Counted from the first letter of the stretch, positions 54,896 to 57,489 are shown. The stretch is DNA of 64,000 bases from Gammaproteobacteria bacterium (GCA_965243205.1 CBDEUK010000002.1:1856001-1920000); one strand, 5' to 3'. The notes: generated from the sequence alone by a model not told the origin. Numbers and translations: made by a program.

Positions 54896-55978
54896 ATGTC
54901 GATAGAAGATAGAGTCAAACGTTGGGTTAAGCCAACTGTTCAATCCATGTCTGCATATAAAGTCGCTGACTCTGCTGGCATGATCAAACTCGATGCAATG
55001 GAAAATCCTTACGCACTTCCAGATGATGTATTAAATTCTTATATAGCAAAACTAAAGACAGCAGAAATTAATCGCTATCCTGATCCTGATTGTGAAACTT
55101 TAAAACCATTACTAAGAGAAACATTCGGTATACCAAACGATTTAGAACTATTGTTTGGTAACGGTTCAGATGAATTAATTCAGCTGATTATTATGAGCGT
55201 TGCTGAATCAGGCAGAGCTATTATGGCACCAGAGCCTAGTTTCGTAATGTATCAAGTGGTTGCTGAGTCTTTAGGTTTAAATTTTATAGGCACACCTTTA
55301 AAAGATGACTTTTCAATTGATTTAGAAAACACACTTAGCTTAATTGAAAAAGAACAACCTGCGGTTATTTTTTTAGCTTATCCGAATAACCCAACAGGAA
55401 ACTGTTTTAATAAATCCGACATTGAGGAAATCATAAATCTAGCTGAAGGTTTAGTTGTTATTGATGAAGCCTATCAAATCTTTTCCAAGCAAAGTTATAT
55501 CGATTCGATAAACAATTATGAAAATATTTTAGTTTTGCGCACTTTATCAAAAGCAGGATTGGCAGGTTTACGGTTTGGTTTTTTAGTTGGCCATCCCACT
55601 TGGTTAAATCAAATGAATAAAATTCGTTTGCCCTACAATATAAATAGCCTAACTCAAGTAAGCTTAGAGTTTTTTCTTAACCATTATCACGTCTTATTGG
55701 AACAAGCAGACCAGATCATTGATGAGAGGAATAATCTCTTTACTCAGTTATCGAATATACAGTCGTTAAAAGTTTATCCCAGTGATGCTAATTTTATTTT
55801 ATTCAAACTGCTAAATGATTCTTCAGATTTAGTGTTTGAGGCATTACTTAAAAATAAGATTCTCATCAAAAAATTTAGCCAATCACAGTCATATTTGTTG
55901 AATTGTCTTCGGGTCAGTATTGGAAAACCAGCAGAAAACAAAGCTTTTATGACATATATGACAAAATATCTATCATAA
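54896..55978 (+). CDS. hisC: Histidinol-phosphate aminotransferase
   Basis: LDAMENP, NRYPD, GNGSDE, PNNPTG, DEAY, RTLSK.GLAGLR. Confidence 0.95.
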   Translation: MSIEDRVKRWVKPTVQSMSAYKVADSAGMIKLDAMENPYALPDDVLNSYIAKLKTAEINRYPDPDCETLKPLLRETFGIPNDLELLFGNGSDELIQLIIMSVAESGRAIMAPEPSFVMYQVVAESLGLNFIGTPLKDDFSIDLENTLSLIEKEQPAVIFLAYPNNPTGNCFNKSDIEEIINLAEGLVVIDEAYQIFSKQSYIDSINNYENILVLRTLSKAGLAGLRFGFLVGHPTWLNQMNKIRLPYNINSLTQVSLEFFLNHYHVLLEQADQIIDERNNLFTQLSNIQSLKVYPSDANFILFKLLNDSSDLVFEALLKNKILIKKFSQSQSYLLNCLRVSIGKPAENKAFMTYMTKYLS

Positions 55979-55990
55979 AAAATCATTAAG

Positions 55991-56083
55991 TATCAATTAG
56001 TTAGATAAACAATCATAATGTAAATGTAATATTTGTCACAATTCTGTAATATTTGTAACATTATTGTAATATTCGTCTATACT
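55991..56083 (+). promoter_or_regulatory. IHF site, 3x 20-bp direct-repeat operator array and -10 element
   Basis: TATCAATTAGTTA (55991-56003); TGTAATATT at 56025, 56045 and 56065; TATACT at 56078. Confidence 0.7.
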
Positions 56084-56177
56084 TTCTTAAATAGTCATTT
56101 TTTTTGACTAACAATTTAGAAAAATAAGCACTTGAGATTTCGTTTATGGAAATGGAGCTCAAGGTTAGGAGACAGCA

Positions 56178-56318
56178 ATGAAGTATATGTTACAAAAATG
56201 GAAAACGTTCATGCATGAGGTTGATCCCAATGAGGTTATTGGCCTATTTTTCATTGGAGTTACCACGATATTTTTTATCTTTTTTTGGATGGTAATCCTT
56301 TCTAATATTATTAAATAA
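56178..56318 (+). CDS. Unannotated 46-aa single-TM membrane microprotein
   Basis: RBS AGGAG (56167-71), ATG 56178, TAA ending 56318; MKYMLQKWKTFMHEVDPNEVIGLFFIGVTTIFFIFFWMVILSNIIK. Confidence 0.7.
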   Translation: MKYMLQKWKTFMHEVDPNEVIGLFFIGVTTIFFIFFWMVILSNIIK

Positions 56319-56334
56319 CCTTTATTTTAAGCAG

Positions 56335-57489
56335 TTATTTAAATTGTGGACGTTGTGAAACCGTCGCATTAAGAATTATCTCATCCCATGCTCGCAGTAC
56401 GGTTAACTTTATATTGCTACCAGGTCTAATCTGAGCAATAAAGTTAATTGCTTGTTGTGGGTTGTTAATTGTTATGTTGTTTATCTTGGTGATGATATCA
56501 CCAGGCATTAACCCAGCCTTGTGAGCAGGGCCATTTTGCATTAATCCAGCTATTAACACGCCACCTTCGAATAAACTCATTTGTCTTTGTACTTCAGGTG
56601 GTATTGCTTGGGCTTCTATGCCTAACCATCCTCTAACAACTTTTCCATAAGCGATAAGTTGCCACATAACATCCAACGCTAAGTTAATAGGTGTAGCTAG
56701 ACCTATACCTTGTGACGCTCCATCACTTGATAAGATAGCGGTATTGATGCCCAATAATCTTCCATAAGCATCTACTAATGCTCCGCCTGAATTACCAGGG
56801 TTAATTGAAGCATCTGTTTGTATGAAATCTTCAAAAGTAGATATGCCTAAGCTCCTACGGCCGGTAGCACTGACAATACCTTGAGTAACCGTTTGACCGA
56901 TATTGAAAGGATTACCAATGGCCAAGACAACATCACCAACTAATAACTTATTAGAATCAGCGATTGGGATAACAGGTAGGTTATCAAGGTCTATTTTAAG
57001 AACTGCTAAGTCAGTATCTGTATCAGCACCGATGATTTTAGCGTCAGATTGGCGGCCATCTTGCAAGGTAACGGTAACAACATCAGCATTTTTGATGACA
57101 TGGGCGTTGGTGAGAACGTATCCAGCACTGTCGAGAATAACCCCTGAGCCTAGGTTATTCGATTCTTTTTGTTCAGGAACAGTAACAGCTTCGCCAAAAA
57201 AACGTCGAAAAGCCGGGTCTTGAAAGAGAGGATGTGAGGCTTGTTGACGGTATTGAATACTGTAGATGTTAACAACGGCTGGCGCTGCAATTTTAACCGC
57301 GCTGTTATAGCTATATGGTTGTTGCAGAGAAAGCGAGTTAACAGTATTGTTCAGGGTTTTGACAATTGGTGAATCAATAGGCTCTATTTGACTAGGATTT
57401 GTTGATGATGAGAAATTCAATTTTTGCAGCAGCAGGATGAGTCCTGCGGCTCCAAGTCCTATCAGAATTGAACGAAAAACAAAATTCAC
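56335..57489 (-). CDS. degS: DegS/AlgW-like HtrA protease (one PDZ domain)
   Basis: N-terminal TM helix, LTNAHV, TDLAVL, IQTDASINPGNSGG, single PDZ. Confidence 0.9.
   Translation of the reverse strand: MNFVFRSILIGLGAAGLILLLQKLNFSSSTNPSQIEPIDSPIVKTLNNTVNSLSLQQPYSYNSAVKIAAPAVVNIYSIQYRQQASHPLFQDPAFRRFFGEAVTVPEQKESNNLGSGVILDSAGYVLTNAHVIKNADVVTVTLQDGRQSDAKIIGADTDTDLAVLKIDLDNLPVIPIADSNKLLVGDVVLAIGNPFNIGQTVTQGIVSATGRRSLGISTFEDFIQTDASINPGNSGGALVDAYGRLLGINTAILSSDGASQGIGLATPINLALDVMWQLIAYGKVVRGWLGIEAQAIPPEVQRQMSLFEGGVLIAGLMQNGPAHKAGLMPGDIITKINNITINNPQQAINFIAQIRPGSNIKLTVLRAWDEIILNATVSQRPQFK

Follow-up and report, generated by a model that had tools for sequence, protein, structure and literature searches.

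The stretch analyzed here, which we refer to as the window, comprises 64,000 nucleotides of a gammaproteobacterial genome (C2:1856001-1920000 of G000, a genome of 2.79 Mb in two contigs, with a GC content of 36.7%), and we found that the gap between its hisC gene and a degS-like protease gene carries an unannotated open reading frame (ORF) of 46 amino acids (aa), situated downstream of sites that match the organism's own pho box. With a probability of about 0.5, the sequence features point to an orphan small protein, induced by PhoB and tail-anchored in the membrane, which functionally resembles YoaI of Escherichia coli and is encoded by a young, lineage-restricted gene. The anatomy of the locus, the match to the pho box of the same organism, the lineage restriction and the conservation of the ORF in a homologue are directly established. 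Two-component-induced membrane microproteins and pho-box promoters are already known; what is new in this case is a nearly orphan member of that group and the unusual phase of its operator.

The connection with phosphate control comes from a comparison of the gap with the Pho system of the same genome. PhoB is encoded there (330.8 bits vs. a TIGR02154 cut-off of 296.2), in a cluster of the order Porin_O_P-phoB-phoR-pstS-pstC-pstA-pstB-phoU. A pho box is described, in the accessible parts of two reports, as two 7-nt repeats with a 4-nt spacer, having the E. coli core CTGTCAT and lying at the -35 position (PMC4415409, PMC8601176). The promoter of the porin gene (Porin_O_P) holds the box TTGTCAT-AAAA-CTGTAAT, followed after exactly 10 nt by TGTAAT, that of phoB holds TTGTAAT-ACCT-CTGTAAT, with TGTAAT again exactly 10 nt further on, and the pstS promoter consists of four units in strict 11/22-bp phase. 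The same succession of a box, 10 nt and a -10-like hexamer precedes phoB in all three other genera in which the gene was found (TTGTCAT-GAAG-CTGTAAT in two genera and CTGTCAT-TTGT-CTGTAAC in the third, with TCTAAT or TTTAAT 10 nt later); with the query used, phoB was not found in G001, the only other species of the genus.

We derived a pho-box consensus, TTGTMATNNNNCTGTAAT, solely from the phoB and Porin_O_P promoters and thus independently of the gap, and scanned the genome with it (all genome statistics rest on a crude calling of ORFs with a minimum length of 120 aa). The scan returned two sites without mismatches, which are the two control promoters and both intergenic, six sites with one mismatch (three intergenic) and 97 with two (25 intergenic). 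Five of the eight sites with at most one mismatch are therefore intergenic, compared with an intergenic share of the genome of 9.8%. Site A of the gap (TTGTCAC-AATT-CTGTAAT, two 7-mers with an 11-bp period, plus strand, 56033-56050) differs from TTGTMATNNNNCTGTAAT by one mismatch, and so is among only eight such sites in 2.79 Mb. Site B (TTGTAAC-ATTA-TTGTAAT, plus strand, 56053-56070), located 20 bp downstream of site A, has two mismatches. Both boxes are oriented toward the 46-aa ORF, and the window as a whole contains six matches with up to two mismatches vs. 2.11 +/- 1.41 in shuffled sequences. An earlier sequence-only reading of this DNA had noted that TGTCAC/TGTAAT half-sites 11 bp apart resemble boxes of the PhoB/OmpR family. 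These half-sites match the organism's own phoB and porin promoters as well as those of phoB in the three genera, and, judging by these motifs, the assignment can be narrowed from the family to PhoB specifically.

The intergenic one-mismatch sites are, besides site A, one before a type II secretion system (T2SS) protein G gene and one before a gene for a secreted protein without family match, and the two-mismatch sites include site B and those before an ShlB-type transporter gene and a MotA/ExbB gene. In Pseudomonas aeruginosa, the hxc type II system, pdtA/pdtB and exbB2-exbD2-tonB4 constitute one phosphate-starvation-induced locus, in which pdtA expression is PhoB-dependent, according to the accessible part of PMC7035377. 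As this known Pho locus parallels the matched genes, TTGTMATNNNNCTGTAAT seems to pick a believable Pho regulon, with site A among its best members.

Two candidate -10 hexamers accompany the boxes on the plus strand. TATACT (5/6 matches, 56078-56083) lies 7 nt after site B and has GTAACA 17 nt upstream (9/12 matches overall), forming the GTAACA-17-TATACT element returned by the promoter scan at 56055-56083. TATTGT (56062-56067) lies 11 nt after site A, which is a near-canonical geometry with a weaker hexamer. It is possible, from the arrangement of these elements, that two nested promoters are present, with starts near 56074 and 56090. The sequence-only reading had described TATACT as having no good -35. 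The distance of 7 nt from box to -10, also remarked on earlier, was recovered; the two control promoters and the phoB promoters of the three genera have 10 nt instead, and the further candidate pho-box sites lie, by reading, mostly 10 nt from a -10. Promoter-like sites in the scan total 7 vs. 3.9 +/- 2.2 in shuffles, which is not significant alone.

The boxes are embedded in three phased 20-bp units (56025-56044, 56045-56064 and 56065-56084, plus strand), each of which starts with the 12-mer TGTAATATTYGT. Over the three units the 12-mer is kept in 35 of 36 letters, and what is left of the units (8 nt each) has essentially nothing in common. The claim of three 20-bp repeats thus stands as far as the exact 20-bp phase is concerned, with the conservation limited to the initial 12 nt. 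When divided into 7-mers, the region consists of ATGTAAT (56024), TTGTCAC (56033), CTGTAAT (56044), TTGTAAC (56053), TTGTAAT (56064) and TCGTCTA (56073), whose starts alternate between 9 and 11 bp, with TGTNAN half-sites 11 bp apart. Both strands of the genome hold nine copies of TGTAATATTYGT, three of them in the gap at the exact 20-bp phase, and TGTAATA-N13-TGTAATA is found in the gap and at no other genome site, which places the phased triple far beyond chance. Slippage would duplicate full 20-bp units; since only 12 of the 20 positions are conserved, it appears that a motif was kept at an exact 20-bp phase and that slippage did not produce the units.

It is possible, although rather unlikely, that the ORF is a real small protein gene, but that the phased 12-mers bind another regulator or are mere tandem AT-rich promoter-like elements. 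The candidates would be CRP, whose consensus overlaps repeat 1, four other OmpR-family response regulators and one of the LytTR type; the genome encodes five Trans_reg_C regulators and one LytTR regulator in all. As for CRP, the protein is present (334 bits vs. a cut-off of 266), repeat 1 reads TGTAATATTTGTCACA, with one mismatch to TGTGA-N6-TCACA, and sites of this consensus are over-represented outside genes (24 of the 62 with one mismatch and 5 of the 6 without). A canonical pho operator would likewise not be expected to show the 20-bp phase, the 9/11-bp alternation or the conserved ATT spacer. A combination of the two regulators would have a precedent in the joint PhoB and CRP control of E. 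coli ugp and psiE, reported in the accessible part of PMC4415409. Yet, the fit to a CRP site declines from repeat 1 to repeat 2 and further to repeat 3. The mismatch in repeat 1 falls on the second G of TGTGA, a key CRP contact, and only one of the 23 other intergenic one-mismatch sites deviates at this position. Besides, a scan of the whole genome with TGTAATATTYGT itself uncovered no regulon (five of the six copies outside the gap fall within long ORFs), whereas matches to the organism's own pho box of the quality seen here are far less common across the genome. Of the genome-wide motif scan that had been proposed earlier, it is therefore the pho-box consensus, by which site A ranks among the best eight, and not the 12-mer, that yielded a candidate regulon.

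The 46-aa ORF (56178-56318, plus strand) is composed of an amphipathic N-terminal helix, a DPNE break, a C-terminal transmembrane helix and a final Lys. The Kyte-Doolittle hydrophobicity peak spans residues ~17-46, and AlphaFold2 predicts helices 2-14 and 17-45 with a break at D16-P17 (mean predicted local distance difference test score of 84.7), in agreement with the polar N-terminus and single transmembrane helix described in the sequence-only reading. As only the terminal Lys extends beyond the helix, the protein would be effectively tail-anchored, and in this model the amphipathic stretch of ~20 residues is its sole soluble part. The ORF is preceded by the Shine-Dalgarno (SD) sequence AGGAG (56167-56171, plus strand), with a 6-nt spacer to the ATG at 56178, and unpaired in the predicted fold; the strong ribosome-binding site proposed earlier is thus borne out.

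We consider it likely that this ORF is a real gene, in view of its strong SD, of a signature which it has in common with known small genes and of a homologue of the same length that is 80% identical. The signature was defined as an ATG with AGGAG, GGAGG or AGGAGG at 4-10 nt, a length of 30-80 codons and a position outside long genes, and it was found at 22 starts (21 ORFs) among 2412 small-ORF start candidates outside long ORFs. Eleven of the 20 other ORFs with this signature match Pfam families above cut-off (L35, S18, Hfq, L32, L33, TatA, CsrA, CSD, Rdx, zf-CDGSH and DUF465). AGGAG itself occurs at 4-10 nt in 15 of 947 intergenic ATG small-ORF candidates, vs. 2-12 occurrences for nine permutations of its letters and 2-5 for those permutations that contain no partial SD.

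A full HMMER search of 1.84 billion representatives returned exactly one homologue, P0001 (46 aa, 80% identical, E = 6.3e-18), encoded on a single 4006-bp assembly contig. It shares the start and end of the ORF, has no indels and differs at nine positions (Y3H, F11I, M12W, V15I, V20A, F24L, T30A, I31M and M38I), all of them conservative. In a neutral simulation, in which point substitutions were introduced up to nine differences and indels were ignored, the frame remained intact in 34% of runs, and in 0.9% it was intact, gained no polar residue in the helix and had a mean BLOSUM62 score at least as high as observed. In a collection of 15 billion proteins, P0001 is likewise the sole relative, and the ORF itself is absent. 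A word-index protein search found nothing with the ORF alone and only P0001 with the two-row alignment.

Other searches yielded no further relative. In 61 related genomes only the ORF's own locus was significant, the next best match having E = 0.026, and among the small ORFs of 108 loci (phmmer, own-genome loci excluded) the best match, at locus L002, had E = 0.0047 and also belongs to the chance-level matches of the 61-genome search. Pfam gave no family at E up to 1, the best Protein Atlas cluster scored 0.87, in unnamed clusters and below a meaningful level, no match to the ORF was confirmed in viral contigs, and none of 527 pattern matches in metagenome contigs was confirmed, a back-translated C-terminal pattern giving 0 matches there. 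A possible paralogue at C2:1485036 was rejected, as a long ORF on the opposite strand encloses it. No RNA run was found that covers the locus, and four runs under the same species label, searched at 80% likeness, contained only two to three short pieces in hisC/degS and none in the gap.

Several observations weigh against a PhoB-activated membrane protein gene. On the side of the promoter, 7 nt instead of 10 separate site B from TATACT, the best -10, site A is 11 nt from the weaker TATTGT, which site B would overlap, and the two sites are 20 bp apart instead of 22, the organism's own pstS units holding the 11/22-bp phase. Site B is unremarkable alone, with 97 comparable sites genome-wide, and, as the half-sites resemble -10 hexamers in AT-rich DNA, some resemblance comes cheaply. 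On the side of the ORF, its frame attains a codon-usage log-likelihood ratio of 5.0, below the 8.9 of another frame and the 5.8 of one on the reverse strand, and Phe/Ile-rich 'helices' arise by chance from T-rich DNA. The simulation described above, when conditioned on an intact frame, gives ~0.03, and there is an ascertainment bias, because P0001 was found only as an intact called ORF. The search for the ORF in relatives, suggested earlier as a check, supplied that one homologue and otherwise turned out negative: with the alignment as a query, 126 family genomes showed the own locus and one chance-level 15-residue match, so that the ORF was not found in 125 of 125 other genomes, G001 (89% complete) included; a search at the level of the order covered the same 126 genomes. 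Finally, a terminator scan detected no intrinsic terminator after the ORF.

In the chain of events that we infer, which includes PhoB binding, the transcription start, translation, the membrane topology and both the existence and the identity of a partner, PhoR would phosphorylate PhoB under phosphate limitation. PhoB dimers would then bind head-to-tail at the TGTNAN half-sites of site A, which are spaced by 11 bp, and probably also at those of site B, and recruit sigma-70 RNA polymerase to the -10 at 56062-67 or 56078-83. The resulting leader of ~90-105 nt would bear a stabilizing hairpin and an exposed AGGAG, from which the ORF would be translated; the single helix would enter the inner membrane and ~20 residues would stay cytoplasmic. 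The protein would most likely modulate a membrane partner, either a sensor kinase or a transporter, as YoaI does with EnvZ. A kinase- or transporter-tuning role of the MgrB/SafA type, as had been put forward in the sequence-only reading, is pure analogy.

Among known systems, YoaI offers the closest model for a PhoB-controlled membrane microprotein. It is a 34-aa E. coli membrane protein whose transcription is activated by PhoR-PhoB under low phosphate and which binds and activates EnvZ, as described in the accessible part of PMC11429745. Both proteins are at most 50 aa long and have a single transmembrane helix, and the modulation of membrane signalling suggested here is a proposal modelled on YoaI-EnvZ. 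In the same source, YoaI is depicted with a short cytoplasmic tail after the helix and with 57 aligned orthologues as widespread in Gammaproteobacteria, whereas the 46-aa protein has its 20 polar residues before the helix and one known relative. A sequence relation was not detected, as judged by the lack of a Pfam family on the ORF, YoaI itself not having been compared.

The boxes resemble canonical pho boxes, such as those of E. coli phoA and pstS (accessible parts of PMC4415409 and PMC8601176), in having two 7-nt direct repeats plus 4 nt, i.e., 11-nt units around the -35 position, and a recognizable -10. Their TGTAAT/TGTCAC half-sites are close to the E. coli CTGTCAT and identical to those of the organism's own boxes. 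They differ from the canonical arrangement in their spacing to the -10 (7 or 11 nt vs. 10), in their distance of 20 bp vs. 22 with a 9/11-bp alternation, and in the conserved 12-mer, which spans one half-site and the start of the next.

MgrB and SafA share with the present case, by analogy, the concept of a response regulator inducing a tiny membrane protein that feeds back on kinases or connects them; neither shows homology to the 46-aa ORF, as far as the lack of any Pfam family at E up to 1 indicates. MgrB acts through its periplasmic region, whereas in the 46-aa protein essentially no residues follow the helix across the membrane. In turn, OmpR occupies at ompF and ompC three contiguous 20-bp sites, each made up of two half-sites spaced by ~10 bp, and the promoter that follows has a poor -35. 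The gap likewise displays three contiguous 20-bp units, with two half-sites each at about this spacing, upstream of a poor -35 promoter. However, the genome encodes no protein at the OmpR equivalog cut-off (best 196 bits vs. 331), the half-site of the gap matches the organism's own pho box, and its units extend into the -10 region, whereas the ompF/ompC sites end at -40.

If PhoB control is true, the ORF would represent a second, unrelated phosphate-starvation-induced membrane microprotein beside E. coli YoaI, in a poorly studied gammaproteobacterial family, and a tractable lineage-restricted gene with an unusual operator geometry, its pho boxes being at a 20-bp and not a 22-bp phase. Small membrane proteins of this kind are routinely missed by annotation.

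The local gene order is murA-like, hisG, hisD, hisC, the gap, the degS-like protease gene and Rieske/cytochrome b genes. hisC (54896-55978, plus strand) and the degS-like gene (56335-57489, minus strand; Trypsin_2 and PDZ domains, DegS/AlgW type) are convergent, and therefore neither needs a promoter in the gap. This gap (55979-56334; 356 bp, 27% GC) is unannotated and carries no Pfam family on its ORF, and, based on its comparison in relatives and on DNA searches, its entire length appears to be a lineage-specific insert. In four of the five relatives compared, hisC and degS are closely packed, with distances of -4 bp (G001), 1 bp (G014), 4 bp (G007) and 9 bp (G006); the exception is G002, where very GC-rich, unrelated DNA of 321 bp separates them (L107, G002:C34:100189-100509). 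The median convergent gap in the genome of the window, by crude gene calls, is 21 bp. Searched against 41 related genomes, the gap DNA gave just short matches with E >= 0.005, and against plasmid and phage collections no match. Earlier it had been left undecided whether the adjacency to degS is functional. Because the whole gap is a lineage-specific insert, the adjacency seems incidental, and from the sequence it looks like an accident of where new DNA was tolerable. As a separate observation, the unrelated 321-bp gap of G002 may indicate that the hisC/degS junction is a recurrent site of DNA gain.

An extension of this picture, which we regard as unlikely, would be that the membrane microprotein is very young and possibly born de novo. 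A T-rich intergenic expansion at the convergent junction would have gained an open frame together with a strong ribosome-binding site, and a half-site unit reiterated at a 20-bp phase would have brought it into the Pho regulon. Envelope-stress signalling might then be coupled to phosphate starvation by the product, or by the unterminated transcript that runs antisense into degS. If true, the locus would show a new gene at the moment of its integration into a stress regulon.

The gap further contains an 18-nt direct repeat pair, ATAAAAAATCATTAAGTA / ATAAACAATCATAATGTA, with its copies 30 bp apart (55975-56022), directly upstream of the phased 12-mers; its upstream copy covers the hisC stop codon. 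The sequence TATCAATTAGTTA (55991-56003, plus strand) is an exact match to the integration host factor (IHF) consensus WATCAANNNNTTR, as had been pointed out in the sequence-only reading. It is not significant, since ~0.13 matches are expected in a gap of 356 bp (the genome has 470 matches, of which 99 are located outside long ORFs), and probably due to chance. On the minus strand, GTGACA-16-TATGAT (56012-56039, 10/12) is the best promoter-like match of the gap; it overlaps repeat 1 and faces the 3' end of hisC, and it could be a source of antisense RNA or a side effect of the half-site sequence.

The leader of the ORF contains a hairpin directly upstream of the ribosome-binding site (56127-56166, plus strand, -13.4 kcal/mol) and a second one at 56092-56110 on the same strand. 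Both had been proposed before; the former is solid and the latter weak, with 6 bp and a 7-nt U loop. The fold of the leader has z = -2.18, with 5 of 200 shuffles equally stable. Downstream, an AT-rich hairpin covers the stop codons of the ORF and of degS (56310-56341; z = -0.54 for the plus strand and -2.27 for the minus strand), which is not a clear terminator because it lacks a U-tract. An 11-codon upstream frame, MEMELKVRRQQ (56147-56182), lies in the leader hairpin, and its TGA overlaps the ATG of the ORF (ATGA); it lacks a dedicated ribosome-binding site and probably arose by chance.

That the functional product is an RNA, either a structured non-coding transcript running antisense into the degS 3' end or a small RNA, with the ORF incidental, seems to us quite improbable. 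Such a view would accommodate the leader hairpin that is stabler than shuffles, the lack of a terminator before degS, the stop of which follows the ORF after 16 nt, the ambiguous codon statistics and the ease with which hydrophobic ORFs arise in an AT-rich region. It does not account for the SD, which is strong, ideally spaced and unpaired, nor for the strong-SD signature that marks known genes in at least 11 of the 20 other cases, nor for a same-length homologue with only conservative changes. No Rfam family was matched either, the scan of 55800-56500 at E up to 10 giving only chance rows of eukaryotic small nucleolar and long non-coding RNAs.

It is just as doubtful that nothing in the gap is functional, i.e., that it represents expanded AT-rich junk with repeats formed by slippage and a frame open by chance. 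The absence of the locus from 125 of 125 other family genomes, the lack of annotation and of a Pfam family, and a promoter scan not above shuffles would all fit. Against this, slippage would copy full 20-bp units and not 12 of 20 positions, site A belongs to the eight best pho-box matches of the genome, and the ORF, presumably along with its SD, is preserved in a second sequence that is 80% identical. A membrane peptide of the type I toxin kind, silenced by RNA structure or antisense RNA, is highly unlikely in spite of the small hydrophobic single-helix product, the long structured leader, the lineage-specific insert between convergent genes and the patchy distribution, as the helix here is C-terminal after a 20-residue polar N-terminus and not N-terminal as in most known type I toxins, the SD is not sequestered in the predicted fold, the promoter/terminator scan showed no antisense promoter-terminator pair facing the ORF, no promoter-like site directed at it from downstream and no terminator, no Pfam toxin family was matched at E up to 1 and the locus is single-copy.

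Beyond the PhoB-controlled ORF proposed here, the analysis provides a pho-box consensus of this organism and a first candidate Pho regulon, which comprises the phosphate porin, phoBR, pst, a type II secretion pseudopilin gene, a two-partner-secretion transporter and an ExbB-like gene. Some of these genes lie together outside the window, at C2:1697832-1720181, where an ExbB/MotA+DUF2341 gene, an ORF of 3933 aa, an ShlB-type two-partner-secretion transporter gene and the T2SS protein G gene are found. Pho-box-like sites precede three genes of this cluster, which resembles the P. aeruginosa hxc/pdtAB/exbB2 locus. Two secreted proteins without Pfam family, encoded at C2:1455074-1455900 and C2:1285003-1285819, both have upstream pho-box-like sites and, by eye, share similar C-termini with a Pro-rich motif, a hydrophobic helix and a basic tail, reminiscent of a PEP-CTERM sorting signal. 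Another good pho-box-like site, TTGTCATAAATATGTCAT, is positioned at C2:1018953-1018970 with no long ORF downstream in its orientation, and may belong to an unannotated small gene or RNA.

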